NCBI GenBank assembly: GCA_051941275.1
Contig: JAVEBF010000060.1
Span: forward strand, 1 to 36,821
Reading direction: 5' to 3'
Source: Dirinaria sp. TL-2023a
Lineage: Eukaryota
Length of the DNA stretch: 36,821 nt
The notes beneath the pieces were generated by a model. That model worked only from the letters and a program-made list of their open reading frames with translations, did not search any database and had not been told where the DNA came from. Made by a program: the position numbers and the translations under genes. Shown piece after piece: positions 7,901-36,821 of the stretch. Position 1 is the first letter of the stretch, and each line of letters begins with the position of its first letter.

Positions 7901-8775
7901 CCTCGACATCATACCATTTTCCGATTCTTATATCTGTCGCAGTCAGTAATGTCGCTTTCTCAGCTTCCGAACTTGCCCAAACCTTTATCAATGGCAACTC
8001 GTACATGGTACGGTACGTCGTATTCGCGAATATCAACAATGAAATTGCTTGCATCTGCTATTTTAAAGTGCCTGAGGTCCTCTTGGTTATCATCATAGAT
8101 ATCGATGCCACTGTTTGCACTTGTCTATCAGCGAATGCTAAAATGAAAACATGCCGATGCTCACCTAGCAACTTCTGCATAAGTATCCATAGCGTTGACG
8201 GATTTCTTGTTCTCCTCCGCCAGCGGCATGATGAATTTTCTTACGGCCAGGAGATTGTTGACGTTCGCGAATAACAATTGCAGAAAAATTCTCCGATAGC
8301 CTAGGAGATGGTTCGGCATTTGTAGATCCTCCTTTTCGATACGCTTCACCCCTTTCACTAGACCCTCGAACTTCTTACGACACCATTCTTCGACCTCGGC
8401 CTCCTTTCCTTTGCGAACGGCAATCAGGAAGTAGGGATCGTATTCAACCGTCGCCTTGAAAGTGCCACCATCTTCCTGGATAAAGTAATAGTCGACGCCC
8501 GCACGGCCTCCAGGGATCATGTCATCCTCAATACTTGTACTATGCATATTGCACAGCCACCCGGTCTTGCGTTTGCCAGATTCGTACCTGGCAAAGCCCA
8601 TCGACTCATCAATGTTATGCGCAAGCCGTGTTGCTTGGATCTTTTCATCTTGTGACGTACCCTCCCCAGGTCGTAGTGTCGAAGCATCAATTGTTCTGGC
8701 GCGACGTGGGTTGAAGGACGACTTGGCCGATCGAAAGGTGCGTCCATAGCTCCGAGCTGGTTTCCGTGAGGGCAT
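1947..8775 (-). CDS. POL2: DNA polymerase epsilon catalytic subunit A, ~2244 aa; exons 8775-8165, 8119-7983, 7933-1947
   Basis: Exonuclease motifs YDIETTK and YNGDFFDWPF; PolB motifs LDVASMYPNIM, KVILNSFYGY and LELDTDG; Fe-S CysX CAACDF..KTC..ICQRE; C-terminal CysA (CENC..CLTC) and CysB (CAKC..CACG). The middle exon, absent from the ORF track, restores the conserved [25 protein letters not shown]. Confidence 0.98.
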
Positions 8776-12144: not shown

Positions 12145-13912
12145 ATGCCCGCGCAAACAATCCCTTCCATTCCCTCCAAGAACTGCATAGCGCAGACCAT
12201 TCGCAAATTAAAAAGCCGTTCCAATTTTTCTCAACATGAGATCAATGTTGCCAGTCCTGGCTTGTGTGGTATGACAGTGGAATCGCTTTCATGCATGGCT
12301 TGGAAGCTGACAGGATACAGACGATATCATACGGCGCCTGGCACCATCACTGTCGGCTCATACTGGATGTACGATTATAGACATCAATCCTGGGCCAGGT
12401 CTCTTGTCTTCCAAGATCCATGAGCTACTCAAACCCAGAAGCCACATTTTAGTGGAGCCTATTCGAGACTACCACCAGCCCTTTCTCCAACCGCTTGCGG
12501 ACGCGCCTGGTTCCAGATACCATTTGAGGGGTTGGGACTATGGCGATGCCGTCCGAATCCGATCCTACCTGGATGAAGGACTTTTGAGTAATGAACAGCA
12601 TGATCACGGCGACGCTTTGGCGTTCACGAAACCAAATAACTCGATTTTGTTAATAGCAAACATGGCACGTGCTAAGCTCCCGTACAGTGGGATAGCTAGT
12701 GGTTCCAAGACTTCTCACTTCAGGGCTCTTAGCTTTGTCAATGCTCTTCGCAAAGGCACGGAATTACACTCTCAGGGGCCCATTCGCATGTTGATGTGGC
12801 TGGCTGAGGCTGAAAAAACGTCTATACTTCCCAGGACCGTGGCTTTACGGAGGAAGACAGCCCTACAAGTCGAGACTTATTTCCATGTGGAAGAAATAGT
12901 GGGCATTGGGAAACGTCTCCAAGTTCATCGAGAGGACAGGTTAGAGTATGAGAGCGGTAGAGCGGTGGCGCATCGCATGGAGAAAGCAGGCATCGATATA
13001 CCCTCACACCGTCAAGATGAAGTGCAAAAGGAGATCCAAAAGGCTATGTCTAGTCCGGGGGTCGATGTACCAATAGCAGCAGCCGAGCTCTCGCGCGATT
13101 GGAAGAAAGAACTGCAACAACTGCAGGAGGAGTTTGACCAGGGTAAATTTTCGCAGTTCGAAGGAGGTCCTGTAGGTCCGAATGAAGTTCGTAGGTATAA
13201 GAGCTATCCTCGAAACGGCCTCACTGCAAAATATTTGCGCCTCAGAGAATTACGTCATAACAGAAAAGACACCAGTAAGCAGCTAGCTGAAGTTGAGGGT
13301 CTTCTACAAGAAGAAGCGAAAATAGACAGATTGGACGACCAGCTTCTGCATCTAGACCTGGACCCTGAAGCACGTAGCGCCAAAATTATAAAACGAGACC
13401 GCATTGCTAGCAGCCTACAGGCGAGTTTGGAAAACACTCAACCCAAAATTGCTGCGCGATTCAATTTTCTTGGGGACGACCGACGTGCATTTGCCCTTGA
13501 ACCCCCCCTGTTGATGTGGGATCGCCGAGGAGCAGAGCCGCTCATGGCGCAAGATGACGAGTTTTTTCCCAATCATAATCTCGCGCTCCTCGACTTTCAA
13601 CCTCGAGTCCCTTTGCAGTACCCGCTTACCGCAACACAGACCATTTACTTCGACTATATATGCCAACTTTTACTTAACAATGGCAATCAAACAGTGAAGA
13701 ACCTTGCGCATGCGGCGCCCGGAGCCTTCGAAGCCTTAACACCACAAGTTCCTGCGTTGCGAGATCCTCGCAAAGGGGGGCGCTTCAACTTGGAAAATTT
13801 CCGAGTCAGAAACTTGACGCCGGAGATGGTATATGAGCTAGCTCTGGCCTGGGAGAAATGGCCTTTTAGGCCTCCCATCTCTGATTTGATGGGAGAGGCT
13901 TTCTTACGATGA
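12145..13912 (+). CDS. MTF1: Mitochondrial transcription factor Mtf1 (rRNA adenine dimethylase-like fold), ~571 aa; exons 12145-12268, 12321-13912
   Basis: The spliced junction gives SPGLCDDIIRRLAPSL..GCTIIDINPGPGLLSSKIHELLKPRSHILVEP (SAM-binding-like motif). Also NNSILLIAN, IRMLMW, LLMWDRRGAEPL and WEKWPFRP, typical of Pezizomycotina Mtf1. The start codon is uncertain. Confidence 0.85.
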
Positions 13913-14617: not shown

Positions 14618-17600
14618 TCATACTTGCGATACGTTGTGTGTTCTCTTTCGCACAATCAACCGCGCTTTTAGTGCTTCAATAACCTCCTGGCCGATCCATC
14701 CCCACTTCATATCACTCCTGCTTTCAAATTCCGCCCACGCAAAGAGAATTCTCAAGTTCCATAGTCTCTCAATTTTTCCACTTTCAAGACATGCTTTTTC
14801 GAGCACCAACCGGTCATCGATAACGGTGCCTCGTGTAACCCTGTAAACTGTGCTTGCCAGGTCAGGCGGTAAAACAAGGGCCCGCTCGGCTCTATCGAAA
14901 CCCTCAAACGTGGGCAATGTGAAAATCCATTCAAAGATGTGCCTCCCAAGGCGATGAGCCGACTGGACGTCATTCAGCGCTTGTGTGGTGGCACCGAAAA
15001 TGGAGACCTGGGCATTGTAGATGGCGCGCTGACGAACGTAGATGCTCTGATGACGCTTGAACGATCGCTGATGCGCCGGATTTCCTGCGAGATCAACGGT
15101 AACAATCCAGTATTCCGGGTCGTTGGTCTCAATCTTCGCGATGGTGTCGAGCTCAGGAAGAAGACAAGGCGCACTTTTGGCAATCTCCGAACCCTCTTTG
15201 AGCGTGACAATCACAGGAAGCGAGAGGAGCCGCCTCGTATCGATATCATAGACGACGAGACAGCGCGGCTCAGCTGCCAGGACCCAGAAATGCCGGAATG
15301 CTTGAAGATGGGATTTGTTGTCAAGGACAGTGGTAGGGAAGAGAGGATACAAGGCGCAGAGGAGTGAGGCAATCGCGATGTTAGATGTACTGAAGGTGTG
15401 AGTTCCGCCACCCAAAAATAACATACCAAGTGCAAGGTGAGTAGCCAGATGGCTTCCGTATGGTACATCAACTTCTGTTCGGCCATGAAGAGACCGCAAA
15501 CGGCGGAAGAGCTGTAAATCTCCAGTACCAGCCATGACACAAGCTATAGCAAGAGCCACAACGTCCTGACAATTTCGTACGGTAATGCGCGTTAATTTAT
15601 TATCATAGTTCAGCACCGGAAGTCTACATATTCTCATAAACTGGTCGAGATAGTGGCAGAGTAGGTTCCTCACATCGATGGACCCCGTACCCGCGAAGCG
15701 AAACCCAATGCTCAAGCAAAGACCCGCAATAATATTGAAGAAGGGCAGGTCTTCACTATTCAAAGAGCGGATGATGATCAATTTAAATTTGTACTGATAG
15801 ATCGACGGTAATTGCTTCTTCATCCAAGCATGTGTAGCACGAATATTGTACCACATGATAAGGTGGCGAGCGACTGTGCGCAGCAGGAACAAATCAGGCC
15901 GGACATAATCAAATTGATGGACGGTATCTGGCACATCGACCCTTCGTGCGAGAGCAGCATCTTGAGTCTTCATGAAAATAAGCGCAATGGCGACTGTAGC
16001 TGCAGCTGTGGCTTTGTCAAGAATATGTACTAGGTTCACTTTCTTCGTGCCAACAGCCAGAACCAGCAAACGCTCGACGATGCGCATGTCGTGCAAACCC
16101 TTCAGATCCTTACCTCGGCCTAGGTTTATGTAGCCAAGGGCAAAACCGGCAGCCAATCTGTAACCCTCATCTCGTAGGCTATCTTGTGGGCTTGAATTGT
16201 CATCTTGGTCGAGATTCTCCATCTCAGAGAGCATGATCTCACTCATTCTACGGTGCTGGGAGTTGCAATATAGAAGGCCTATGCCCATAATACCACTCGT
16301 CTGCGTCAATAGAGAGAGGTTAAGTTCTGCGGCTCCAGGAGGAAGCATTCGCGTCACGTGCACCGAAAGCAGACGAGTGACTAGGGTGTTCATTGTACCT
16401 AGGTAAGAAGCCGCAAGACCCAGCAGAAGCCCGATAGAAGTCATGGTGTGTTTCGGCGTCAAATACTTGAACGCAACCCATTTAGCAATAGCTTTCAGGT
16501 GGCCATTCAGTCCAAGAGCAAGCAGAAAGCCAGCGTGCCTATTCTTAAGCTCCGAGGGTTTGTTGAAAATGATCCAAGATGTATCAACACCCTTGGCGCT
16601 TGTTGCAATACTCAGACCCGCTTCCACTCCAGCATGAAAGAAAGCCCAAGAAACTTTCTCTTCTGTGTATGCTACCTTGTCTGCTGTGACAGTTGTGTTC
16701 GATGGCTGCATGACACAGCTAAGTGTGAAACCATGAATTGGAAATTTCTCCGTCAACAAAGGCAGCCGAGCATTGTAAAAAAGACAGCTTCGGCCCGTCG
16801 ATACTGCAAGGGTCCGCATAGCAATCGCTTTCGCCAATTCTTGTTGAGCTTCGAGCAGCTCCGTGTCTGACCAATCTGGTTCTGGGATGCATTGAGCTAC
16901 GGGGGCATGCAAGGGATGGAGAAGCTTGCTGGCTTCTGCAAAGCGTTGATCGTCTTTGAAAAGTATTCTTGTAATAGACTGTCTGTCTACTTCGGCTGAC
17001 CCATCGTATGCTCCAATCGTTTCAACTTCGGTCGTAGAATTACAGATCGTGTGAATATCCCGTGTGCCCTCACTGGTGAGCGGCATAATTGACTTACCAT
17101 GGAATGCATCTAGAGACACCTTACTGTCCAGCACACTCACATCATCTCTGCCTATCATCTCCAGCGTATCCTTTCCAAGGGACGGCGACGGCCGGGCTTG
17201 ACAGAACGAAAGTGCAGCTCGATAGCGGACTGCTAAACTTTCTGGAAGCGTCTCTAATGATGACAATTTTAAGCCCCAGGAAGACATCTCCAAAACAAGA
17301 GCAAGCACGCTCTCGTTTGCGCTGGAGGTCAGAAGGCTGATGGTCATTGTCGTTCTTGGTGTCAGTGCCATCAGCAGTCTATTGGAGGAACCTTTATGAC
17401 TTGACCATCTTTCAGAGCCGTCAGGGTGACCAACTAGATTAAGTAGAGTGACAAATGGCTGCGGCATAGATTTTGAAGTCACTGTCTGAATGAACTGCAG
17501 TATTGAGGGGGGGGGGAAGGGCTCTGCCGGCTTTTCGAGATCTTGAACAGCAGAATCGTCAAATAACCAGTAGTCCATTTCGATATTTTCCAGCGTATAA

Positions 17601-20600
17601 CTTGCAGAACCCCTGAATCCCCATGACGGCCACTTAAGCCAACCACCGAGCTGTGTCAAGATCGGAGTCATTCTATGAAGGAGATCTGACGATAGGGTGT
17701 TCAGCTTGAACTCTTCCCGAAGCAGATGTAGCCCAATCAGCAGCGTTGCGAGCGTCATTCGTACGGAGTCAGCTGAGGAGTCGATGGGTATCTGACCACT
17801 TCCAGTCTGCGTGGACGTGTCCAAGGACTGTTTGAATTCCCGCGCTAGAGATACACAGTTGGCCAGATATGAAGATTTTTTCTGTGTTGGAAGTGTACCA
17901 GGAAGGATCGAATTACTACTTCGGCCACGTACTGCCTTTTTTGAAGTGTTAGTTTGCGGTCGTGGCGATGAACGTTCGTGGATTATAGCCCAATTCCAAG
18001 CTTCGCTCTTCATCCACGCCGGCCAGATACTGCAAGGGTTACACTCTTCAATCAGCATGGCCTCCCAGCTCTCAAGGTTAGTGTTTGCGCCGCTACTGGA
18101 TCGCAACAGACCGCTTTTGCGCTTTTTCTGTCTAGTTGTGGTCTCTGAACGCTGGTCCGCTATAGAAGCCACCGCCATGGAGAACAAGCAAAGAACAAAA
18201 GCCGTCCACTCAGGATCGACTTCATCTTCCGCCCTTCTTCGTAACCAGGAAAGGGCGCTCCACCAGCCATGTAATATTTGACCACCGCATTGTCCGAAAT
18301 AGGATAAAATCGAGTCGCACAAATCTATCATCTTGCTCACAGCATAATTGCGTGGCAAGAGCTGTATCTCAATGCGGTGCCTAGTGCCTTTAGTGTCTAC
18401 TAGATCAACTTCATTTCGCTGGCCGCTGTGCTCGAGCCCAATCAGCGTTTGAGGACCCTGACTGATGACGCGTCTGAAGCCACCTTCGCGCGTCTGCTTT
18501 GAAGGAACGTTATTGGCTATTTGAAAAGGGTTGTAAACGTTAAGCCTTGTTGGTAGTTGAATGCTGAACGATGTTGCCCACGGAGCCTGTAAAGACAGGA
18601 GGGGGCTCCCATCAGCACTGTTGTCAAGCACAAGCATTCGACTGCAATCGCCGTCGCGAATTGTGCAAGCGTCCACAGGATTATCTTGTTGGCTAATATT
18701 CACTACGCGGATTCTTGGATCATCATACAGCCTGGTGGATGCCTCAGGTGGTCCTTCAGATCCAGTACCGGGAGCCGCTGAAGGTTCGTTTGCAATATCA
18801 AGCGTTAATGTTGTAAGGCTGCCAGCGTCTGGATGAAGTACAGACAAAAAGCAACGAGAGTGTTCAGCCTCGGATCCTGTCTTACGATTAGGAGATCTCA
18901 GCACAAAGACTTTTGGACGTGTGAAAGAGTTCGTGGATTTCTTGTCATTCAAGCGATTCAGACTTCTGTACGGAAGCACTTGGATCTTGCTCATGGCTAG
19001 ATCAACACGCAAATCTTCGAATCCGCCATCGAAGCTCAATCCTTTCATCTCTGCGCCTAGTTCATCACCGTCGGAGGTTTCAAATATCGGCTTATTTTGG
19101 GGCTCCACGGCTTCGGGAGGCTCTATGCTCGATCGTAGTCCATGGGATACTTTCGCGCGAGCCAGAGCGATGTCGTTCTCAAAACCGTGAACCAGTCGTA
19201 CGCTACTTCGCCCAAACGACGTGCTGCGTTGGCCATTGCTGAACGACGGGTGACCAATTGCAAAATCAGTGAAAAGCGTCTTTTCATAAGTCGTCGATAA
19301 GTCTCCTCGCGCCAGTATAGAACTAACACGTCGCGAGCGAACTGTAGCATTTGTATCCTCTAGAGCTGAGTCGAGGTGTGAGACCAAATCCTTATCGGTC
19401 TCGTTGAAGCTGTCATCAGATAAAACGTCTCTGTTTTGAGTCGCCCTTGATCTAACCGCACCAAGGCTGTCCCTCCCATTGCTGACATTTCGCGCCACGG
19501 GAGTGTTAGCTCCGGTGCTCGTACCCCGAACATACGAGCTGCGCCGCCTCGAGACACTGGAACTAAGACTTAAAAGGTCGCGAGGCTTTGGTTTCCTCGA
19601 GGATTCGTGGATGATATACCGAACCGACCATATAGAAAAATCTTTCGATTCTTGGTTTTGAGTCACGGCCAAAAGGAGCGGCGGCGCCGCTGGGGAACCC
19701 ATTCCAGTTTCCTTGAGTTCATCGCTTGATGAGATGTAAATTATTTGTTCCTTGGGATCAACCGCATCATAGAGAGACAGTGCTGAGAGATGGCGACGGG
19801 ACGACGCTCTGGCAACCGGCGTCTTCTGCGCTACAACCGTACGCACCTCAGTTAAGGGATCAGCCAGACAGTACAGCCGTGGGACGGTCGTTTCTAAAGT
19901 GCAATCACGCGCTTGGCGCAAAATGTGACTCAGTGAAGGCACATGTGGATCTTCTAAGGCCGAGCTTGTCTGCAAGTCTGCTAAGGTAGTCTGACCTTGT
20001 GAGCTAGGTATAAAGCTCGAGCAAGCTCCCTGTGAAAATGCAAAGGAGTTTGGCGGTACAGCTGGTATTGTAGGAGATCTAGGTAACATGGGTTGATAGG
20101 ATACTCGTCTCTGTAATAAGATCCCGTGAGGTAATGGATGTATCTTATCCACCTCGAATGGCAAATGGACAGTGTAACTGGTACCTGACAAAAAGAAAAT
20201 GTGGGCTTGAGTTCTGAGAATAACCACGAGCGCTCGACTAATAAACCTTTTATGTTGGTCAATAGCACCGTTGGTAAATGGAGGATAGACCACTGTGGGA
20301 TCTTCATTGATGTCAGCTGGAGCGTCCACGCCATGTTGATTACGCCCATCAATTCGACCACGAAAAGGCGACTTGAATCTTGATGCATCCGAGGTAGAAT
20401 CATGTTCTCTACTGGTAAAGAAATGGGTGAATGTTGCTTGGCTAACAGCCTCGCCTTCGATATCAAAGCGAAACGCTCTTTGTACAACGCCGCCGCGCGA
20501 CCAGATCACGCAGTGCTGCGTGCTGAGTAGCTCCTCTTCCTCGTATCCCCCTTCATCATCACCTCCGGTCGTGCCAGCTCTCAACGGATTACTCTGTACG

Positions 20601-20710
20601 GTTTGCCATTTGTAGAGATTCTCAGAGGGTTCAGGGGGAAGAACACCTTCGGAAATCAGGTAAGCAATGGCAGAAGGCTTGTGAATGCCCAAAGAGATTA
20701 CGGAAGCCAT
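14618..20710 (-). CDS. APC1: Anaphase-promoting complex subunit 1 (BimE/Apc1), 2030 aa, single exon
   Basis: Start reassigned to ATG 20710 (MASVISLGIHKP). Motifs EEELLSTQHCVIWSRGG, WAFFHAGVEAGL, HAGFLLALGLNGHL, PC repeats (EGYRLAAGFALGYINLG), YGSHLATHLALGMLFLGGG and HLQAFRHFWVLAAEPRCL. Confidence 0.97.
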   Translation of the reverse strand: MASVISLGIHKPSAIAYLISEGVLPPEPSENLYKWQTVQSNPLRAGTTGGDDEGGYEEEELLSTQHCVIWSRGGVVQRAFRFDIEGEAVSQATFTHFFTSREHDSTSDASRFKSPFRGRIDGRNQHGVDAPADINEDPTVVYPPFTNGAIDQHKRFISRALVVILRTQAHIFFLSGTSYTVHLPFEVDKIHPLPHGILLQRRVSYQPMLPRSPTIPAVPPNSFAFSQGACSSFIPSSQGQTTLADLQTSSALEDPHVPSLSHILRQARDCTLETTVPRLYCLADPLTEVRTVVAQKTPVARASSRRHLSALSLYDAVDPKEQIIYISSSDELKETGMGSPAAPPLLLAVTQNQESKDFSIWSVRYIIHESSRKPKPRDLLSLSSSVSRRRSSYVRGTSTGANTPVARNVSNGRDSLGAVRSRATQNRDVLSDDSFNETDKDLVSHLDSALEDTNATVRSRRVSSILARGDLSTTYEKTLFTDFAIGHPSFSNGQRSTSFGRSSVRLVHGFENDIALARAKVSHGLRSSIEPPEAVEPQNKPIFETSDGDELGAEMKGLSFDGGFEDLRVDLAMSKIQVLPYRSLNRLNDKKSTNSFTRPKVFVLRSPNRKTGSEAEHSRCFLSVLHPDAGSLTTLTLDIANEPSAAPGTGSEGPPEASTRLYDDPRIRVVNISQQDNPVDACTIRDGDCSRMLVLDNSADGSPLLSLQAPWATSFSIQLPTRLNVYNPFQIANNVPSKQTREGGFRRVISQGPQTLIGLEHSGQRNEVDLVDTKGTRHRIEIQLLPRNYAVSKMIDLCDSILSYFGQCGGQILHGWWSALSWLRRRAEDEVDPEWTAFVLCLFSMAVASIADQRSETTTRQKKRKSGLLRSSSGANTNLESWEAMLIEECNPCSIWPAWMKSEAWNWAIIHERSSPRPQTNTSKKAVRGRSSNSILPGTLPTQKKSSYLANCVSLAREFKQSLDTSTQTGSGQIPIDSSADSVRMTLATLLIGLHLLREEFKLNTLSSDLLHRMTPILTQLGGWLKWPSWGFRGSASYTLENIEMDYWLFDDSAVQDLEKPAEPFPPPSILQFIQTVTSKSMPQPFVTLLNLVGHPDGSERWSSHKGSSNRLLMALTPRTTMTISLLTSSANESVLALVLEMSSWGLKLSSLETLPESLAVRYRAALSFCQARPSPSLGKDTLEMIGRDDVSVLDSKVSLDAFHGKSIMPLTSEGTRDIHTICNSTTEVETIGAYDGSAEVDRQSITRILFKDDQRFAEASKLLHPLHAPVAQCIPEPDWSDTELLEAQQELAKAIAMRTLAVSTGRSCLFYNARLPLLTEKFPIHGFTLSCVMQPSNTTVTADKVAYTEEKVSWAFFHAGVEAGLSIATSAKGVDTSWIIFNKPSELKNRHAGFLLALGLNGHLKAIAKWVAFKYLTPKHTMTSIGLLLGLAASYLGTMNTLVTRLLSVHVTRMLPPGAAELNLSLLTQTSGIMGIGLLYCNSQHRRMSEIMLSEMENLDQDDNSSPQDSLRDEGYRLAAGFALGYINLGRGKDLKGLHDMRIVERLLVLAVGTKKVNLVHILDKATAAATVAIALIFMKTQDAALARRVDVPDTVHQFDYVRPDLFLLRTVARHLIMWYNIRATHAWMKKQLPSIYQYKFKLIIIRSLNSEDLPFFNIIAGLCLSIGFRFAGTGSIDVRNLLCHYLDQFMRICRLPVLNYDNKLTRITVRNCQDVVALAIACVMAGTGDLQLFRRLRSLHGRTEVDVPYGSHLATHLALGMLFLGGGTHTFSTSNIAIASLLCALYPLFPTTVLDNKSHLQAFRHFWVLAAEPRCLVVYDIDTRRLLSLPVIVTLKEGSEIAKSAPCLLPELDTIAKIETNDPEYWIVTVDLAGNPAHQRSFKRHQSIYVRQRAIYNAQVSIFGATTQALNDVQSAHRLGRHIFEWIFTLPTFEGFDRAERALVLPPDLASTVYRVTRGTVIDDRLVLEKACLESGKIERLWNLRILFAWAEFESRSDMKWGWIGQEVIEALKARLIVRKRTHNVSQV

Positions 20711-21256: not shown

Positions 21257-23267
21257 ATGAATCCGAAAGCCCGGCGACGCGGCAGCTTAATTCAGCTAAG
21301 GTTGATCGATATCTAGAGCTCCCGAATGTCGATGCTGACAATTTGACAATAGCTTTGACCTACCACATCGTATTCACGTCACCCACCAATATCCTGTATC
21401 TGCTCCCAATGGCTCGAGTGTCATCGTTTACGGTCACGAAGATGGTCTCTCACTGCTTTGGAGAGGGGGCCGGCCGTTTAGACCTATCCAAAGGGGACGG
21501 TCAACTCATGTACCTCCTCTAAAGACCAATGGCACAAACCCTCAGGAGGACTTTTCGCTCGAATCAAAATCTGATGAAGGATCGGCCAATTCTGCGCAGT
21601 CACACTTAGACGAACAGATCACTAGGGATCAACAAATCGGATGTGATCCGTTACAGCCTTACGAACAAGGAACGCAAGTGCTAAATCTTCCTTTGGGTAC
21701 TGGTGTTCTGCATTTGGCTTTTCCCCATCTACGTCCAGATTTGCAAAAAAGCAACTTGGGGTCTTTACCGAAGATGCTGCTGGACAGATTGGTACTGGTC
21801 ATTGGATGTACAGACTGTAGCGTACGACTGATCACGATACCGCTCACGCCGCCGACTTCAGAGACCAAAAGTAGACTTGAATCCAGAACTAGAACCCTTG
21901 GAGGATACGCCGGAAACGGCGTCTTTCAGGAGCAGATGCTCACGTTTGACGGTAGAACAGGGCACCGAACAATTCCAGGTGGTGTTTCACTTGCATTGAC
22001 AATGCATTCGACCTGTACCACACAGGATACTTCGATGAACGATGCAGCCGATCAAGATACCATGGTTTCTGACACGAGCCCACCAGCTCAGATGCGTACC
22101 TATCCTGGAGAAGAAATGCACGAAAACAAGAGCATGTGGTATCTTCTGGTAGCATCGCATTCGAACGAATCATCAGGAATGTTGATAGTCAACCGCGTTC
22201 CAGTATTATCAGATGGTAGCGGCATCGACGTGGAGCATTCCATAATCAATGTTCCTTGGCGGAAGCAGTATCTGTCCTCACCCGCCGTCTTCATCCAGTT
22301 TAATACGCTGCTTTACCCTTCTGCTCGTCACTTGCAACTCCTTCTTGCAGATGTAAAGGGAACCGTGCGTATTTACGATTGTCGACCTAATCCGGAGGTG
22401 GATCCAGGAGCATGGCTAATCGAGCTATATACTGAGTGGGGGTCCCCTACCGATGAAATCCCCAGGCGCAAGCAAATCTTGGCAGCGCAATGGGTACTGG
22501 GAGGTAAGGCAATTGCGGTACTTCTGGCCAATGGGGAGTGGGGAATCTGGGACTTGGAAGGTAGCGGGCCTAGGGCCCAACGCAACAAAGATCTACGGCA
22601 GTCTGATCCTGGCGTGGACTTAACTAAATTTGCAATCAGCGGTCGGGTCCGCACCTCATCTAGCGCCAAAGAGTCTGTCAGGGGTACAGCAGGGAGCGAA
22701 AGAACATCATGTCTTGCGCCTATGACGCCTGGTACACGCAAGGTCCGGCAGGAAACGCTGTTCACTAGCCCTGCTCTGGAAGCTGAGGGGCCCATACGTG
22801 GAGGGTTTGCTGCGACTGCATGCGCTGAAGGGCCGAGCAATCGGGCAGACGACGAAAGCCTACTACTATGGTACGGTGAATCCATATCGACTATTCCAAG
22901 CCTTCTAAGGTACTGGCAAATGAAGGTCCAAAGTTCTGGCAACTTGTTAGGCAACGGTGTCAAAACTGAGGCAAAACACCTTAACAACGTTGAGCTAGGT
23001 GGTCAACTATGGAATAACGTGACACTGATGTCTCAAAGCCCTGCGTCAATGCACGGCACAAATAGCGGCAGTGGCAACCAAAATAGCGTATTAGTCGCAG
23101 GAGAGTACCGGCTCGTCATTATCACTACGCCGCTGGCTGAACTCTCGGTATCAATCAAGCCGAAGCCGTCAACTCGAGCAGCAGCCCACGATCAAGCACT
23201 ACTGAGAAAGGGCGAGCTTGACGTGAATGGTATTAATGACGTACTTGACAACATGGTCAATGGGTAG
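21257..23267 (+). CDS. NUP37: Nucleoporin Nup37-like WD40 beta-propeller protein, ~652 aa; exons 21257-21300, 21353-23267
   Basis: The spliced N-terminus MNPKARRRGSLIQLSFDLPHRIHVTHQYPVSAPNGSSVIVYGHEDGLSLLWRGGRPF resembles Pezizomycotina Nup37. WD-like motifs LLLADVKGTVRIYD and LLANGEWGIWD; LAPMTPGTRK and GELDVNGINDVLDNM are conserved-looking segments. Confidence 0.8.
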
Positions 23268-27083: not shown

Positions 27084-28056
27084 TTACTTGCCTTCGAAAT
27101 AGAACTTCCCCAACCCTTTTCCCTCATCAGGGCTGCGCATGGGATATCTACCACTTTCGCCTTCGTCCAATCGCTCCTTGATGATCATTTCTGCCTGTTC
27201 CTGTCCAGTCATGCTAACATCCCGTCCTCCACCCCGCCGCGGAGTGGTATCTATCGTGTCGCGACCGTGCGAGATACCGTCTAGCATAGCGGGGTTGCTC
27301 TCTTGCACCCCTTGCATTGGACTCGCACTATCAGGCCGACTCTGTCTCAGCGTTGTCGGACTGCCCACGCCGCCGCCGGATGCTCGAGCGCCAGCGGCTA
27401 TGCGCGCGGAAGCCGAGGTAGGCCCACTGATAGTGCTGCTTGCTGCCTCTCCAAAGCCAACTAGGCTCGCGTTGCCTTCATCGCTCATTCCGGCACTGCT
27501 ACTCACGCCATCATCCTGGTCTTCGCTCATCTTGTCTGCGTCATAAACGTCGCCTTCAGTGGTTCGACCGCCGACACTGCCGGTTGCAGACGCGCTTCCA
27601 ACGGTACTCCTCTCTTTCGCTTGAGGTGCAGTGGTGTTGTCGAAGTAGCCCAGAGGCGGTGGCGGTTGCGTGTGAGAGGCGCCCGAAGCCAGGTGAGCGG
27701 AAGCACCTCGAAGTGTAGCCACTCTCTCAAGCCCAGCCAGGCGTGAAATGCGGTCCGCCCTTTCGGCGTCAAGCGTGTTTGTGGAAGAGTTTGAAGCGGA
27801 GGAAGTAGTGTGCATGTGTCCATGGGAGGCTCCATGGCCTTGATGCCCGTCTTTGATCGCCGTCGTAGATAAGGCAGAAAGAGAAGTGGTGCCAGAATTC
27901 GGTGTACCTCTACGAAATTTAGTTTGTGTCGCAATACGACAGTAAACCACACGGGTGCGAGTATCTGATCGCTGGCAGAACTTACGGGCCCATGTCCGAG
28001 GGAGTAATCGGATCGGAAGGCGGAGGTGGCAGATTGATCAGTGTCGGTGTCGACAT
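27084..28056 (-). CDS. Conserved Pezizomycotina low-complexity hypothetical protein (tentatively RfeF-like), 298 aa; exons 28056-27986, 27909-27084
   Basis: MSTPTLINLPPPPSDPITPSDMGP|GTPNSGTTSLSALSTTAIKDGH..DAERADRISRLAGLERV..ASLVGFGE..GLGKFYFE; intron GTAAGT..CTAAA..TAG. The RfeF name is from memory only. Confidence 0.8.
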
Positions 28057-28906: not shown

Positions 28907-31900
28907 ATGCTCCCTCCATTCCGGATCCGCAAATTAGGCCCTTCTGCGCCTACTGCTTCTCGTGCATCGCACGGCAGCAGGCTGGTCCCCGATGAGGATC
29001 CTCTACTACGCATAACTGCGCCCCAGTATGACAGTACTATCTCAGATTATCCAGATGCTAAGCTACGATATGTCGATGATGACGATGGTGAGATCGTGAC
29101 TGTAAGCGCAGCCTTCTATTGCTCGGGTTCGATCTGACTCGCCAAATCCAGGTTGGTACCTCACTTGAACTTTCTCAACGCCTTCAGGAACCTCTATCCC
29201 AGCGTCTCTATCCACAACAAGAACACCACGTATTCGATGTTAACCGCAAAGAGGCTTCCGTCAAGGTTTGGCGCTCACTGGCTGAACAAGAAACCAAATG
29301 GGGTTCTGTAGGACGCCTCATTTCAGCGGAATGCGGCCATAGCATATTAGGCCAACACTCATCCCGGTCATTGGGACCGGACGCTCCGAGAATCTGTACG
29401 CCTACGGCAGTTGCTCGAGATCAGGAAGTCGACCATACTTCAATAGAGAGCGAAGTCGAAGACTATCGTAAAAAATACATCGAGGCTTGTAACCCGCCCC
29501 AAGTCATTCCTTCTCAAAATATCACGCCGGCACTTTTCAGAAGATTTGATACAACGAAGCACACTTCCCGAGCAATCTCGAATTGTGCCACCGATCCAAG
29601 AACGCTTAATCTTATTGCAGGACCAGCGAGCCTTACCCCTGAAGGCCAACGCCAGGTAAGTAGAAGCGTCCACCTCGCATGTCATGCGTCCTAGGACCGC
29701 AAGCTTACGACTTCAAAGGCTCAGGCGGCCGGTGACCGGATGCGAGCATCCCGATATTCAAGGCGCACAGTGGCTGCTCCTGAACCCTCACCATTAAACT
29801 ATCAAAATCGCTGGGCAAGCTACAATCGTTCAACCTCATGCTTTGGCGTCGACAACAGATTGAATTTTTTCGATCCACTAGCCGGCGGCAGTAGCGGCAG
29901 GAGACAGGTAAGTTCTCATAAGTTTTCCGCGGACGGCCCTTCCCAAGTTCCATTAAATGCAATATTGATCAGTCATAAAGTGACTGGCACATAATTTTTG
30001 GAGCTTGGCTCATGGTGAGGTCCTGAGGAATCAAATTTGTCGTTGATTCGAATATGTGGGCAAAAAATTAGCGCAAAGCAAGAATGATCGCTGCAACTTA
30101 TCACTGGATAAAATGGCTTCTTGGCTGGTATTTTGCCATGACATTTGAGCCATGCGATCTGCCCTCTGTCGTCGCTTCGCGTCCAAATAATCTCATTTTA
30201 AGCGCACTTTCCTATAAACTTGCCTCTTCAAAAAGACCTTAGTAACCTCGATAATAGGCACAGGCTGCTGGTGATGTAATGCGAAGCCAAAGAAGCTGCG
30301 TCAGGCAGCCTCCATCCAAGTCAGACGTGTGCAGTCCAGCAATGATAGATACCAGGAACTTGGCGAATACTGGTCGTCGAAGTGTCCACTTCGACGTGCC
30401 GAATGCTCATGCGACCAGCACAAGCGGATCTTTGGCGACCGAGCCGCCAGTGAAAAGCGTCCAGTCTCAAAATCTACTAGAAGTATTCGAATCAGAATTC
30501 TGCAAAAACACAACTGAGGGAGAACTTGGAGGAGTCGCTCCAGATCAAACTTTTTCTTCGCCAAACGTCGATATATCGACACTCCCAATACGAACTCAGA
30601 ACCACACGCCTAGCACGCTGTTTGAGGGGCGAAATTCAGCGGAGTTAAAAATAACGAATCCGTCAGCAAGTACACCCTCGGGTCAGGAAATTTTACCCTC
30701 CATTAAGCAGTCAGTCGACGATATAACCAGTGTAATATCACACCTCCAAACACAAGCACGCTCTTCTCAGGTGGATATTCCAGCACAGGAGATGGCTTTA
30801 GGCCTCGAGAAAGCTTTGAATTGTGCTCTTTGCGAACTGAAGCTATGTCTGAGCAAGATCGCGGAGTCCGCCCAAGATGTTACCAAGTTGGCATACAGTA
30901 AAAGCCAGCACCGTAGCAATCAACAGACCGAGGACACGTTGCAGCCGCGCCATAGCTTCTCCCACAAGGCCACCGCTTCTCCGCGAATAAAATCGTGCCC
31001 GCAGTGCTCATCAGCGAATAGAACCGTTAGGAAGTCTTGCAAAATGTCTGGAGCGTCATTGCAGGAGTCGCCAATTGAGAAAGCTATCAATGCAGCATCC
31101 AACCTGGATCTGAGCATCTCGCGGAGTTGTGAGCCTAGCCGGAATCAAAAGTTTCGCCCTAAGGCGGACTCGTCAAAATCAGGATTGGAATTTTCAGATC
31201 CCGAATCCATTTCAGAGGCAACAGCTAGAGCTGGTCTGCACGAACAAGAACCAACACAAGACTTGCCTGTATCTTTGTCTCTCGACCACGACCTACCGAT
31301 CACCAAAGAACACACAGCGATCAATAATGACTTGAACTCAGGCATACATTCCTCTGGTAGCTTTACTCTTGACCAAGGAAGTTCGGCCGAACTCACCAAT
31401 GAATACCCAACAAAATCCCTTGGCTCTAGCTTCCGGGAAACAGATGGCGGTCCTTCACAAGTCTTTCCGTCGTTGCCAGGCATGAAGCCTTTAGTACCTT
31501 CTCAGAACGTCCAACCTTCAAGCGAAGATTCAGTAGTTAGAGTTGATTCTTATGCTTCTTTGGATGTCGCGGACCCTTTGCCAAGTAGGCTTCCCTTTCC
31601 CGAAGCGCCGGTCCGCAAATCCCAGGTAGCTGGATCGAGTGACAAGTACACAGAAAGCAGCCGCCGACCCTATTCAACGGACTTCGATGGCAGCGGCAGG
31701 ACGCCATATTCCTCTTCCTTGCAACAGAGATCCGTTGATGTCGAAGGATCATCAGCGAACGACGCTCGTACCATAGGCAGCCGGCCAGATTCGTTGCAGC
31801 TTGGAGCGCAAAACGGCCATTTATCAGCGTTATTCTCGCAAGACATCTACGCTGCCGAACACACCGATGTTACGACGGCTAGTAAGGTACAAAGGTGCGT

Positions 31901-32048
31901 GGAGCAACTGCGAAAGCTCGGTTTTGGCAGCGATGCGGATGGTAGTATGCAGAGGCTCGTGATATATGCTCAGGCTGCTGACGGTGATCTTGTTGAAGCC
32001 ATTGACATAATTGATGAAGAGCAGCGAGCATATCGACAAAGATGCTGA
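28907..32048 (+). CDS. PB1-like N-terminal / UBA-like C-terminal protein, ~892 aa; exons 28907-29101, 29152-29655, 29719-29907, 30258-32048
   Basis: The N-terminal LRYVDDDDGEIVT|VGTSLELSQRL is an acidic OPCA-type PB1 motif. The C-terminal VQRCVEQLRKLGFGS..LVIYAQAADGDLVEAIDII is UBA-like. All junctions are phase 0 with GTAAGC/GTAAGT donors. Joining across the 350-nt third intron is inferred. Confidence 0.7.
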
Positions 32049-32462: not shown

Positions 32463-34906
32463 TTAAACCTGCGTACAAACACCTACCGGCCAAGTTCCGG
32501 GAGGGTAGCAGTTGGTTTGGAAAGAGCGCAGGCTATAAGTACCGTTGGGGTCATCATTGAGATCCGTGACGAGATCGATCCGATTTCCAGGTACGACTGT
32601 ATTTGGCGTATTGAAGTCGTAGGTGACCGCCTGCGCAACATGCATCGAGTCGAATCCCTGGGCCCCGATGGTGACATTAGCTCCTCCATCCCCGCAAGAA
32701 AAGTAGTAAAGCTCAGCCAATCCGACGGCGTCGCTATCGTAGACAAGTATAGCGTGATAGAATTGTTGATCATTGCTGTCGTCGTCGTAAGCAGTCAGAA
32801 TGTATTCAACCGATAGCTGTGAGTTCGCCCCATAGTGGTCGATCTGGTAATAGATGCCTTGATTCCCAGCGGTGCGAACTATGAGGTCTTTCCAGAAAAC
32901 GCAGATCGAACCGGGGGGTAGCGCGGAGGCATATAGGTTTGTATGGATATTATCATTTCCCACGTTGGCGAGACCGACAACGAAGAGCTGTGGTCATGAT
33001 TAGACAGATCGCTATCAAAACACGTTCCGGAGCATTTGGTGTGACTTACACCGTTAGTAGAAACGGTGAAATTCTGGCTCCGCTGTTGGTATATTTCTAT
33101 GGGAAAGCCAGCAAGACTGGCCCGTGCGACGTCGTCATATTCATCGGAGATATTTGGGTTGGTAACGATTGCTGTAGGTTTTGACAGTCTAATGCCTGTG
33201 GTATAAGTATAGCTTGAGGCTAGTGACGCGCTATTGTTTGCACCCTGGATGATGGATGTCGACGTTGGCAATTGACTAGCAGATGAAAAGTTGGTGGTGC
33301 TATTGAAAACAAATTGACTGCTCGAAGTCACAGCTGGCGAGGACAACGTCGTAGAAGATGCTACTGAGGACGTTGGGGCCGTCATAGACTTTGTGGAACT
33401 AGTATTGAAAGTAGAAAGAGTCATACTTAAGCCGCTGCTGATTCCGCCCAAGAAGGGACTGGGTTTGGTGGGTCCGCTGAATGGCGTCGATGAGAACAGT
33501 GATATGTTAGCAGATGAGTTCGCTTGCAGTGATAGGCTATTTGCTCTCGGTAAAGAAGTGGACATAGCTTTGGATCCGTTTGTAGCATATAAGACTGCGA
33601 TTGAGCTTGGTCTGGGCGGTATAGTTGCATTGTGATCCGAAGAGGCGGGAGGAAGACTCTGAGTAGGATTCTGACTATTTGCCGGATGGCTTGTATTGAT
33701 GAGGGTGACTGAATGAAAAGAGCTTCGTAGGGGTGCTTGAATTAGAGACTACTCATTCTAGACATACGATCGGCAGGAAGCTCACCTAAGGGAGCTCGAC
33801 GAGAATAGAGAAGTATTGAGACCGAAAAGCGCTGTTGTGAAATTTGAAAGTGGTGAGTTCAAGGATGACACGCCATAGCCAGCAGAGTTATATTGAGTTA
33901 CTAATAAGGACGATTCATTTAAGAGCTTGGCCTTATGTGTAGAGGCGCTTGTTCGCAGCGCAGGAGGTGGGTTTGTTATACTGCGGTTAGTCTTTTTTGA
34001 GGGTGAAGACCAAGAACTCAAGCTGTTGGCCGCAGTATCGATTATGTTACACGAATAGTTCCCTGTCCAATATTTATTATTAGATTTCCATCGTTCGTGC
34101 CAAATTGCGCTTACCTGCGGAGACCGCCAACAATTTTACCGGGACACAATCTGGAGGAGTGGAGCCGTTGAATACTGCCAAAATTGTATCATTGATGGCA
34201 CAGAACTTCGCAGCTCCGCCATTAAAGGCTCGATTATTCCAGGCCAGATAGCCATTGGCGATAGTGAAGTTCGTATTCATCATTCCAGTCGACGACGACA
34301 CTGCAAAGAGGGCATCTATGAGGTCAAGCTCAGAAACTGATGCCTTTTAGGACATTGTTTGATGAAAAGAACGATTTCAAAGTAGTGATTCCATCTTTTG
34401 CCAGAAGGAGTATTCGATTGGGACAGAGCAAAGCTCGAAATTACATAAAACTTACAAGGCATGTTAGGCGATGCTGAAACCCAAAGGCCGTCACTGGACA
34501 GCGAATCGTTCAGTAGAGTAAATACTGTTCCAAGTCCACATATCGAAGTCTGCCGGCCGTCCTCGCCGACGTAGGACGTCTCATTCTCCAGTGCACGTGA
34601 AGCTAAAGAGCTCAGCGACCTAACCACGAACATATAACGCTTGCCTTTAGGAACAGCAGAGATTACAGTAGGCATGGAAATAAGACCGTGTGGAGGGGCC
34701 GGCTGGCGGAGGTTCACTGCAGAAAATGGTGTATCTAGCTTGCTCGGCGCCATCGATAGAAATTGAGGGTTCGCTTGCTCGTAGTTCACAGAGCTGGCGC
34801 CTGGTACACATGGTCCTGTAGCTACTCGCAATGTCGCAACTGTACCAGCAGTGCTACCACCAAGATTTAAAAAAAGCGCTACAGCGAGAGCCCTGCCAGC
34901 CATCAT
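32463..34906 (-). CDS. Secreted Ser/Thr-rich (cell-wall/adhesin-like) multidomain protein, ~708 aa; exons 34906-34456, 34315-34115, 34062-33786, 33722-33050, 32987-32463
   Basis: Signal peptide MMAGRALAVALFLNLGGSTA; a Cys-containing beta domain (C..FTL..LAWNNRAFNGGAAKFC..DCVPVKL, DUF7908-like from memory); a long S/T linker with many N-x-S/T sequons; and a C-terminal beta domain (FPIEIY..VSTNG..FWKDL..QGIYYQ..DGGANVTIGAQG). No GPI tail or TM segment evident. Exons sum to 2127 nt. Confidence 0.75.
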
Positions 34907-35979
34907 TGTCGATTTGATGCGAATTTTTCTGGGTGTCGCGGGCCGTGGCTCGCAGTTGAGATCAAGCAGTTTTTAATTCTGGAATGCAAGAGACAGCAAA
35001 TTAGGAATGCGGAGTCCTGAGACAAGTCATGTACTTAGATAACCACAAAGCGAACGTTGGAAATCAACATCAGATTGTCAAGAGCCTTTACATTACCCCA
35101 GGAATTTTCTTTAGTCGGGTGATTTCACCTATACTTACAAGATGGATTTCCATGGCTTTTGAAAGATGGGCGAGACGTTTGTCCTAATTAGTAATTTCCA
35201 TATTCGCTTTTGACGAGAAATCAAGATCTCTGTTCACTAGCAGCGAGTGTTCGAAGCATTAACATACGGCCTTAGATGGTACTACCGTTTCATATCATAA
35301 CGTGCAAATCGTCAATATCCAGACCCACCATCGAGCGCATTCCACTTAAAAGCCAGATATTATACTCAAGAAACACAAAAAAGCGATGTAGTGGGTTTGG
35401 GCTCTTCCTGTCATGCAATGATGCATGGAGTTCAGGGAGAAGGTGCAATTTGTATGCAAGTGTTGGTCGTAGGCCCGACTGGTCAATTCAGGGTATTGTC
35501 GAAACGCTTTTTATCCAATGAACGGTTGTATCATGCGCCAATACCATCGACTGCAATATTAAAATCTGGGATGCAGTTTCATCTGAAAACGGTCCAAAAT
35601 TAACCAGATGACGCAAGGAGTCAAATTTGGCGAGCATTCGGATGACGGAATGCATTCCAGCACTTAAAAGGGCAGATGAGTGAAGGTCCATAGTCATCAT
35701 CGTTTGCCATAGGTATCTTCTTTCGAGATACACATGTGGCACTTTCTTCGCTCGAGGTGCTTCATCCGGTTCATCTAACCGGCGCACCCCCTACCTTAGG
35801 ACGGAGTAGGGGATCTACGATTACCTTACTTAACCGCGGATCCTCGTACCTGGATTCTTGGCTTCTTGGCTTCACCTACTTTCTTGGTTCACTTGCCTAC
35901 CTTAGCGAAGATATACGATTCCCTGGGACCGAGAAGGCGCGGTGGCTCCTGAAAAACAGTATAGACACCCTTTTGTAAA

Positions 35980-36340
35980 ACCGGGACCGGGTGGACCGGT
36001 ACACCACCAAGAATGCGGAGACTAGCCGTTTTTTCGCGGGTTGTATCTAGTTCACGCCAGGTGTAATTCCACCCGGTCCGGGTGCATGATCGATAGATGA
36101 CCCCGGGTGGAAAAACCCACCCGGGCCACCCGGACCATTTAGTAAATTTAACTCAATTTGATTTAAATAATCAATACAAGAAATTGAGTGAACGTCTCTT
36201 AATATGCTTTATTTCAATTGAATATGACATTTTTCTGAGTCAATATCATTATAAAACTCGGTTGAGTGAATTTAGAATCTGTAAAATTGAATCATCGATA
36301 TCATCAATTAAAACTACCTTTGAATTCGAAGAGCTACTGA
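35980..36340. repeat. End of a probable DNA transposon/MITE with multiple CCGGGTGG/CCACCCGG subterminal repeats; interior hypermutated
   Basis: CCGGGTGG or its reverse complement at 35987, 36069, 36103, 36117 and 36126; perfect 9-bp hairpin at 36102-36125; palindrome CACCCGG-T-CCGGGTG at 36070-36084. Transition-degraded copies TTGAGTGA occur at 36184 and 36262 in the AT-rich continuation. Boundaries are approximate. Confidence 0.55.
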
Positions 36341-36355
36341 GGGTTATCACTGGCG

Positions 36356-36800
36356 ATGGGGCCCGCGATCCACCCTGACCGTCGCGGTGAGGTGAACGCG
36401 GTCGACGCGACGTCGACAAGTGAACGAGATATCATCGAGACGTTTTCGCAGAGAAGAATATCAGAATCGAGCGAAATATTGAATGAGGTAAATAAGATTG
36501 TGAGACTCTATGAGTCTAAAGAAATCAATGTCAGCGAAATGATGTCGATGACTGAACTGCACAATCTGTTCGACATGATTCGCGCAAAGACGCGTCAGAG
36601 CGAAGTCGCAACTATTTCAATCACACAAAATGATAGCGACGCGATGATTGCGCGATTTAAGAAGATGATCAGCAGACTTGAAAAAGCTGTACAAAAGAAG
36701 AAACACGTGCAGAAAAAGAGCAATTGAGCGAAGATAACGATTATGAGCACCGCGAGCGCACAGAGAACAACACGCGTCAACGTTACTGTCATGATACTTT
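36356..36800 (+). mobile_element. Degraded non-LTR (Tad1/LINE-like) retrotransposon ORF1 5' fragment
   Basis: ORF MGPAIHPDRRGE.. followed by a coiled-coil (MIARFKKMISRLEKAV), then SN*AKI, read as a mutated S-x-W-A-x-V/I motif typical of fungal LINE ORF1 (TGG>TGA). Strong CC/GG depletion indicates a repeat-silenced sequence. No RT or zinc knuckle lies in the window. Confidence 0.55.
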
Positions 36801-36821
36801 GACCCTTACGACCTAGTGACT

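Follow-up and report, generated by a model that had tools for sequence, protein, structure and literature searches.

What removes nearly every GG and CC from a short stretch of DNA and leaves CG, CA and TG in place? The question is raised by contig JAVEBF010000060.1 of Dirinaria sp. TL-2023a (GenBank assembly GCA_051941275.1), of which positions 1 to 36,821 of the forward strand, 36,821 nucleotides (nt) in all, were analyzed and are called the window here. The window appears to end in the 5' part of a decayed, dispersed copy of a transposon-like repeat, and the open reading frame (ORF) at 36356-36727 is part of it. A preliminary description, made from the letters alone, had proposed a repeat-directed C-to-T mutator with a preference for CpC, a variant of repeat-induced point mutation (RIP). 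We arrive at a similar reading, which we favor on balance and by no means firmly: a patch of about 400 nt would have been made by a RIP-like C>T mutator that targets C followed by C. The features that are needed for the argument are the following.

36402..36802, both strands affected: saturated CpC>TpC / GpG>GpA patch of about 400 nt, with 2 GG/CC against about 37 expected and 27 inferred changes of CpC type
about 36401/36402 and about 36802/36803: patch edges; before the patch GG last occurs at 36400, and beyond it CC is next met at 36803
36356..36727, plus strand: ORF of 123 amino acids (aa), the 5' part of the element's first ORF, with homologues and no Pfam family
36725..36727, plus strand: TGA stop derived from TGG (Trp) by change of the 3' G of GG, as aligned with Trp
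36487..36488, plus strand: sole surviving GG in the patch, at a GAG/GTA codon junction
36750..36751, plus strand: sole surviving CC in the patch, in an ACC codon
36800..36802, plus strand: a further TGA, in frame if the first stop is read through, at the 3' boundary of the patch, where homologues have E/K/K/Q

Loss of CC and GG from the patch

Within 36421-36800 (380 nt; A143, G89, T79, C69), GG occurs once, at 36487, against 20.8 expected, and CC once, at 36750, against 12.5 expected, so that the counts of the preliminary description are exact. Its statement that the loss is specific to these two dinucleotides also holds: CG (29; observed/expected ratio, o/e, 1.79), CA (28; 1.08) and TG (25; 1.35) are retained, and TA is low (15; 0.50). 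On the product side GA (51; o/e 1.52) and TC (20; 1.39) are elevated, with AG at 34 (1.02) and CT at 11 (0.77). The baseline in 1-36000 is 0.91 for CC and 0.90 for GG. The CpG ratio is high because CCG>TCG and CGG>CGA remove C or G yet preserve CpG; CGA (17 times) and TCG (9 times) rank within the 20 commonest trinucleotides of the patch.

The deficit has no counterpart elsewhere in the window. When segments of 380 nt were slid along it in steps of 50 nt, the o/e of CC+GG fell to 0.056 at 36401 (2 observed vs 36.0), compared with a minimum of 0.63 away from the element and a window-wide first percentile of 0.65. The longest gaps free of GG and CC (263 nt at 36487-36750, 125 nt and 87 nt) are all within the element, the maximum elsewhere being 83 nt. 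Mononucleotide shuffling of 36401-36802 (n=20,000) gave 36.9 ± 4.9 GG+CC with a minimum of 19, whereas 2 are observed.

The same holds when the encoded protein is taken into account. In 20,000 codon shuffles of the 134 codons of 36401-36802, which preserve the amino acids and the codon usage, GG/CC at codon junctions numbered 14.5 ± 3.0 and never fewer than 4; the sequence itself has 1. Internal GG/CC is found in 1 codon, where 9.6 would be expected for these residues at the codon usage of the DNA polymerase epsilon and APC1 genes in the window; TCC, GCC, CGG and AGG are absent, and ACC is present once. The deficit in the codon shuffles implies an effect at the nucleotide level rather than one of amino acid composition. 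Residues 12-123 of the ORF, the last 112 as noticed at the outset, contain zero Gly, Pro or Trp, and the depletion extends 75 nt beyond the stop at 36725.

The RIPCAL-type index (CpC+GpG)/(TpC+GpA) is 0.026 in the patch vs 0.79 in the rest of the window. The conventional indices do not respond, as had been predicted: TpA/ApT is 0.43 vs 0.72 in the background, with none of the enrichment of CpA-type RIP, and (CpA+TpG)/(ApC+GpT) is 1.22 vs 1.25. A CpT-type signature is not dominant either, (CpT+ApG)/(TpT+ApA) being mildly depleted at 0.68 vs 0.94.

Direction, context and strand of the changes

The direction of change was read from relatives of the ORF, hereafter the query. Exhaustive HMMER search returned 10, word-indexed search 5 and profile search 120, giving 125 distinct proteins besides the query. 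All are singleton, short, broken ORFs (45-283 aa) from ENA assemblies with no family assignment, and so many broken and dispersed relatives suggest a decayed transposon-like repeat.

Where homologues retain Gly, Pro, Thr, Ala or Trp, the query has Asp, Glu, Ser, Ile, Phe, Thr or a stop. At codons 17 and 25 it has GAC/GAT (Asp) and P0013, P0012, P0009 and P0005 have Gly (GGY>GAY); at codons 20, 31, 36 and 64 it has TCN (Ser) and P0013, joined by P0009 at codon 64, has Pro (CCN>TCN). Codons 26, 27 and 57 are ATC (Ile) opposite Thr in P0013, fitting ACC>ATC, and at codon 29 the query reads GAG/ACG where five relatives have Ala, fitting G/GCG>G/ACG. Codons 30-31 (TTT TCG) face Pro-Pro in P0013, fitting CCC CCG>TTT TCG, in which each C before C has changed and the C before G has been kept. 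The stop at 36725 (codon 124, TGG>TGA) aligns with Trp in P0003, P0004, P0005 and P0010, i.e. in 4/4 homologues that reach this column in alignment A2, and its column in the family alignment (column 275) holds Trp in 27/31 sequences; TGG had been expected there. The preliminary description had allowed that homologous proteins might naturally lack Gly, Pro and Trp, and P0013, P0073, P0009 and P0005 carry these residues at the aligned sites.

A scripted listing collected the patch codons that the homologue residue can yield with no change other than C>T or G>A, with the context taken from the query DNA. Over eight homologues it yields 39 query-side transitions, 27 of CpC type, 6 CpT, 4 CpA and 2 CpG; the six close homologues alone give 17, 4, 2 and 0, respectively. 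Column shuffles gave on average 7.9 CpC-type changes (maximum 18) for the eight homologues and 4.9 (maximum 13) for the six, and the observed counts were reached in 0/1000 shuffles. Neither CpG-type decay nor a CpT-type process dominates, with only 2/39 changes of CpG type (at a CpG o/e of 1.79) and 6/39 of CpT type.

The products are always TC or GA. Pro becomes Ser and not Leu, Gly becomes Asp or Glu and not Ser or Arg, ACC becomes ATC, its third C intact, and TGG becomes TGA and not TAG. In line with this, the patch has 77 GA+TC to 46 AG+CT, compared with 5018 to 4735 for the background (odds ratio 1.58, p=0.014). These products indicate that the target is a C with C on its 3' side, implying that the enzyme reads the 3' neighbor, as RIP does. 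G>A and C>T changes alternate along the patch; therefore, both strands were hit. The reading frame of the patch stays in register with the homologues.

Erosion of glycine and proline across the family

At the protein level, where the counts cover nonsynonymous changes only and are biased by ORF ascertainment (copies with many stops are lost) and by shared ancestry, 74/126 related proteins including the query are free of Gly and Pro, and 103/126 have at most one of either. Gly plus Pro make up 1.07% of the residues in the 126 proteins, vs 12-14% in the least-decayed P0013 and P0073. Residues 1-64 of the large subfamily were compared with P0073, the least-mutated copy, at 61-96 other copies per site. 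Transition products replace its Gly in 318/340 cells (94%) and its Pro in 309/332 (93%). Other classes change less, as seen for E>K (135/281) and D>N (42/61), and low values are found for H>Y (7/61), L>F (39/342) and M>I (88/429), the last being, like R>K and S>N, an automatic column class that is noisy because of its ambiguous direction and was used broadly only. Pooled by column, His is retained at 83-85% and Cys at 86%. CpT-type is the second class after CpC in the large subfamily, and the CpT-type classes S>N and R>K are intermediate, with ambiguous direction.

Gly and Pro states are common to the same columns across subfamilies, which supports Gly/Pro as ancestral. Of the 28 pairs of Gly/Pro columns in the large subfamily, all four combinations of states occur in 16, implying that the losses recurred in separate copies.

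Extent of the patch

Three further segments bound the patch.

36137..36330, plus strand: AT-rich leader 5' of the ORF (24% G+C), homologous to N-terminal extensions of some family ORFs
36331..36401, no strand assigned: unmutated G+C-rich island comprising 25 nt 5' of the ORF, the start codon and codons 1-15, which retains G2, P3, P7 and G11
36803..36821, no strand assigned: last 19 nt of the window, where CC reappears (CCC at 36803-36805, CC at 36812)

The span of 36137-36800 first given to the hypermutation therefore needs revision: it stands for about 36402-36802 and fails for 36331-36401, where CC/GG is normal, and for 36137-36330 the evidence is not decisive. The island has 66% G+C and 14 CC/GG in the 70 nt of 36331-36400, and precisely its codons (1-15) are mutated in homologous copies. 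In the leader, 2 CC/GG vs about 5.7 expected, together with o/e values of 1.66 for TC and 1.60 for GA, are suggestive of the mutator having acted there too. CC/GG-rich DNA ends sharply at 36136/36137, the upstream flank at 35700-36136 holding 82 CC/GG. On the other side, the patch probably ends where CC returns at 36803, and the element runs on past the end of the window.

A proposed RIP-like mutator that reads CpC

Changes that are transitions only, fall on both strands, approach saturation, stop at sharp edges, lie in a repeat and depend on the 3' neighbor together describe a RIP-like process. We propose that a homology- or repeat-directed C-to-T mutator acted on duplex DNA, and that within the patch of some 400 nt nearly every C before C, on either strand, would have been converted to T, with CpG, CpA and TpG spared. 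The enzyme is probably a DNA-methyltransferase-like protein of the RID type, which would read the 3' base as in RIP with CpC, or more loosely CpY, as its preferred context instead of CpA. The sharp edges could delimit the stretch over which this copy paired with another, or they could be junctions left when a mutated and an unmutated copy later underwent recombination or conversion. Dependence on repeats in the source genome, as well as the enzyme and the timing of its action, we infer from this pattern.

The comparison with RIP of Neurospora crassa is close in most respects. As there, only C:G>T:A changes are found (39 compatible changes), on both strands and near saturation, in a sharp-edged segment of a repeated element with defined tract ends; the 3' base sets the specificity, and new stops arise in a transposon ORF. 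The difference lies in the context. CpA is preferred in Neurospora; in the patch the order is inverted, with CpC mutated and CpA/TpG spared, TpA is not enriched (TpA/ApT 0.43), and the new stop is TGA rather than TAG. The available parts of one paper give the order CpA>CpT>CpG>CpC for N. crassa and, for Trichoderma reesei, CpA about equal to CpG, and CpT above CpC (PMC5496416). In Neurospora the RID and DIM-2 pathways alike favor CpA, according to the accessible portion of a further report (bioRxiv 10.1101/344036).

Preferred contexts vary by fungal lineage, with CpT signatures in Magnaporthe, Botrytis and Sclerotinia and CpG signatures in Tuber, Microbotryum, rusts and Rhizoctonia. The former resemble the present family, in which CpT is likewise the second class in the large subfamily; the latter differ from the patch, where CpG is spared. 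The ten-genome survey of Amselem et al. (2015), in its accessible text, names CpA, CpT and CpG signatures, ties CpT to a RID motif and has zero mentions of CpC (PMC4352252). RIPCAL defines a CpC>TpC class and index, and what is available of its description reports dominance of CpA (PMC2621366). In the parts of the literature covered, a coverage without the main older context survey (Clutterbuck 2011), we found no report of CpC-dominant RIP, CpC appearing only as a least-preferred or non-dominant context.

We consider it possible, at a little short of an even chance, that this fungal lineage has a genome-defense mutator that acts on CpC first and CpT next and spares CpA and CpG, the reverse of the Neurospora order. 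Its relics would be moderately G+C-rich and CpG-rich and invisible to scans based on TpA/ApT, and its enzyme may be a RID-type methyltransferase with an altered 3' preference or another deaminase of duplex DNA.

Several observations weigh against this proposal. Only one copy was available as DNA, and the clean CpC-only pattern is seen in DNA for this single patch; the homologous proteins come from other assemblies, and none is identical to the window ORF. In the six closest homologues the CpA- and CpT-type rates are similar to the CpC-type rate. Within the patch these copies have 37 CpA-, 36 CpT- and 28 CpG-type events, and in codons 1-15 they have 30 CpC events at 9 sites, 11 CpA at 5 sites, 5 CpT at 1 site and 3 CpG at 3 sites. 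These non-CpC changes imply that a broader C>T process also acted on the family. The direction of change is weak at codons 20, 31, 36, 53 and 57, where the unmutated residue comes from P0013 alone and distant relatives lack it. The 70-nt unmutated island and the return of CC at 36803 need an additional assumption, i.e. a short pairing partner or later conversion. Finally, the protein-level counts are biased by their restriction to nonsynonymous changes, by ORF ascertainment and by the kinship of the copies. The CpC preference first proposed is thus retained for the query (27/39 changes, 0/1000 shuffles) and given up as the sole context in the family, in view of the six close homologues.

Alternative explanations

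A single CpC-biased event might have struck an ancient master copy and then been inherited, with the window copy a mosaic of mutated and pristine DNA and no mutator at work since. S20, I26, I27, S31, S36, I57 and S64 are indeed among the derived states shared by 5/6 close homologues, P0013 alone being without them, and the pristine 5' island beside a saturated patch resembles such a mosaic. However, P0011 has G23, G53 and D25 whereas P0012 has G25, E23 and E53, which are incompatible site patterns, and the four combinations in 16/28 Gly/Pro column pairs imply that CpC-type changes recurred. A master copy would account for the edges yet still require a CpC-biased mutator, and we regard this history as unlikely. 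Somewhat more doubtful still is a single-strand DNA deaminase, AID/APOBEC-like or other, acting on replication or retrotransposition intermediates, in which case the patch would be the exposed single strand. Local, nearly saturated hypermutation with sharp bounds and a length of about 400 nt would suit it, as would the possibility that the family is a retroelement, given a predicted helical, ORF1-like ORF. The known AID/APOBEC enzymes, APOBEC3G included, read the 5' neighbor (CC>CT, i.e. GG>AG), and APOBEC3G acts on a single strand, where it deaminates the second (3') C of CC (GG>AG, TGG>TAG). The patch shares with APOBEC3G editing the involvement of CC, the dense local hypermutation and the conversion of Trp codons to stops, but here the 5' C has changed (GG>GA, TGG>TGA), with TC/GA products on both strands. 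The interleaved G>A and C>T changes are at odds with editing of a single cDNA strand, which would be one-sided; the specificity resides in the 3' base (CC>TC), and the expected P>L, G>S/R and TGG>TAG products are not seen.

An origin without any mutator, in the native composition of a coiled-coil-like protein poor in Gly, Pro and Trp or in selection, appears very improbable. A helical structure is predicted for the ORF region, and coding strands are often rich in A, but composition does not predict the deficits at codon junctions (1 vs 14.5) and in codons with a synonymous choice (1 vs 9.6) or the depletion that continues beyond the stop at 36725, and homologues have Gly, Pro, Trp and Thr at the aligned positions. 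Scarcely credible is a chemical or technical origin, be it G>A of the alkylation type at 5'-GG, a mutagenized strain, or an artifact of assembly or sequencing. SN1 alkylating agents prefer G>A at the 3' G of GG, and this preference matches the G>A changes at GG. The changes nevertheless occupy only 400 nt of the 36.8-kb window, within a repeat, and are saturated on both strands, the frame is in register with the homologues, and the loss of Gly and Pro is mirrored in 125 relatives from other assemblies.

Implications

Surveys grade fungi as RIP-competent by CpA>TpA indices, which a CpC-directed process would escape, as its relics are not AT-rich. If the proposed CpC-reading mutator is real, it would be a natural specificity variant of the RIP machinery, and its RID-type enzyme, set beside those that prefer CpA or CpT, could reveal the basis of the 3'-neighbor preference. 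De-RIP tools and the dating of transposons would then need another mutation model in such genomes. The effects on codons also differ: those for Gly and Pro disappear and those for Trp turn into TGA, altering the rate and the manner in which transposon proteins are inactivated.

The element and its relatives

Pfam has no match for the 123-aa ORF or for 10 longer relatives, and a search for still longer ones among 8000 candidates of 453-2000 aa found none, which is weak evidence only. An Atlas search with the ORF returned only unnamed fungal clusters (scores up to 0.89), and in the structural comparison the L1 ORF1 entry of the Atlas had a template modeling (TM) score of 0.28, below the bar. An AlphaFold model of P0005 based on 28 sequences is poor and mostly helical (mean predicted local distance difference test, pLDDT, 59.4; predicted TM score, pTM, 0.42). 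The element may be a retroelement with a helical, ORF1-like ORF.

The window holds one copy of the element, at its very end, and the rest of the element lies outside. tblastn with all family proteins found no further copies in the window; marginal matches at 1471-1566 and 3321-3395 (E 0.003 and 0.01) are inside the DNA polymerase epsilon ORF and were dismissed. A metagenome locus with 39% identity over 46 residues (L001) was rejected as a chance match to 'EILNEVNKI' on an AT-rich contig with unrelated intact genes. This contig of 8823 nt (20-36% G+C) is gene-dense and giant-virus-like or protist-like, with an FtsH-like AAA protease, a papain-like protease, a RING/IBR-type protein and a prolyl-hydroxylase-like ORF.

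The ends of the family ORFs show some regularity. P0001, P0012, P0013 and P0014 (80-82 aa) all terminate exactly ahead of query Gln81 (CAG, 36596-36598), suggesting a shared or recurrent CAG>TAG stop of CpA type. The number of aligned ORFs falls from 102 to 47 at a conserved Trp (family column 215, query codon 65, 36548-36550) and from 54 to 31 at the Trp opposite the stop at 36725, implying that conversion of Trp to stop is a recurrent route of breakage in the family copies.

Neighboring genes and the upstream flank

The window has a G+C content of about 49% and carries long, nearly uninterrupted ORFs for DNA polymerase epsilon, APC1, a JAB/MPN AMSH-like protease and eIF2A. From these we infer that the host is a fungal eukaryote with few introns. 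The two reference genes for codon usage are located as follows.

1947-8054, minus strand: DNA polymerase epsilon ORF
14618-20710, minus strand: APC1 ORF

No RID/Masc1-type methyltransferase gene is present among the 11 ORFs covered in the window. Five ORFs of 228-589 aa have no Pfam match (12662-13912, 21774-23267, 27084-27815, 30279-32048 and 32879-33565), and an Atlas search with that at 30279-32048 gave no usable match. The last gene-like ORF before the element, 34316-34906 on the minus strand, has a weak match to DUF7908, and the spacer of about 1.2 kb between it and the element (34900-36136) is without an ORF of more than 100 aa. An Rfam scan of 33000-36821 found zero RNA families.

Upstream of the element, TpA/ApT is 1.24 in 35700-36136 vs 0.72 for the window. 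The 8-mer CCGGGTGG is clustered at 35980-36136, directly 5' of the AT-rich leader, with 5 occurrences in both orientations within 147 nt; the whole window has 6, vs 0.64 expected. The cluster is CC/GG-rich and was not touched by the mutator, and it folds as DNA into two hairpins (-38.1 kcal/mol, z = -3.7). It might be a protein-binding array or one end of a different element.

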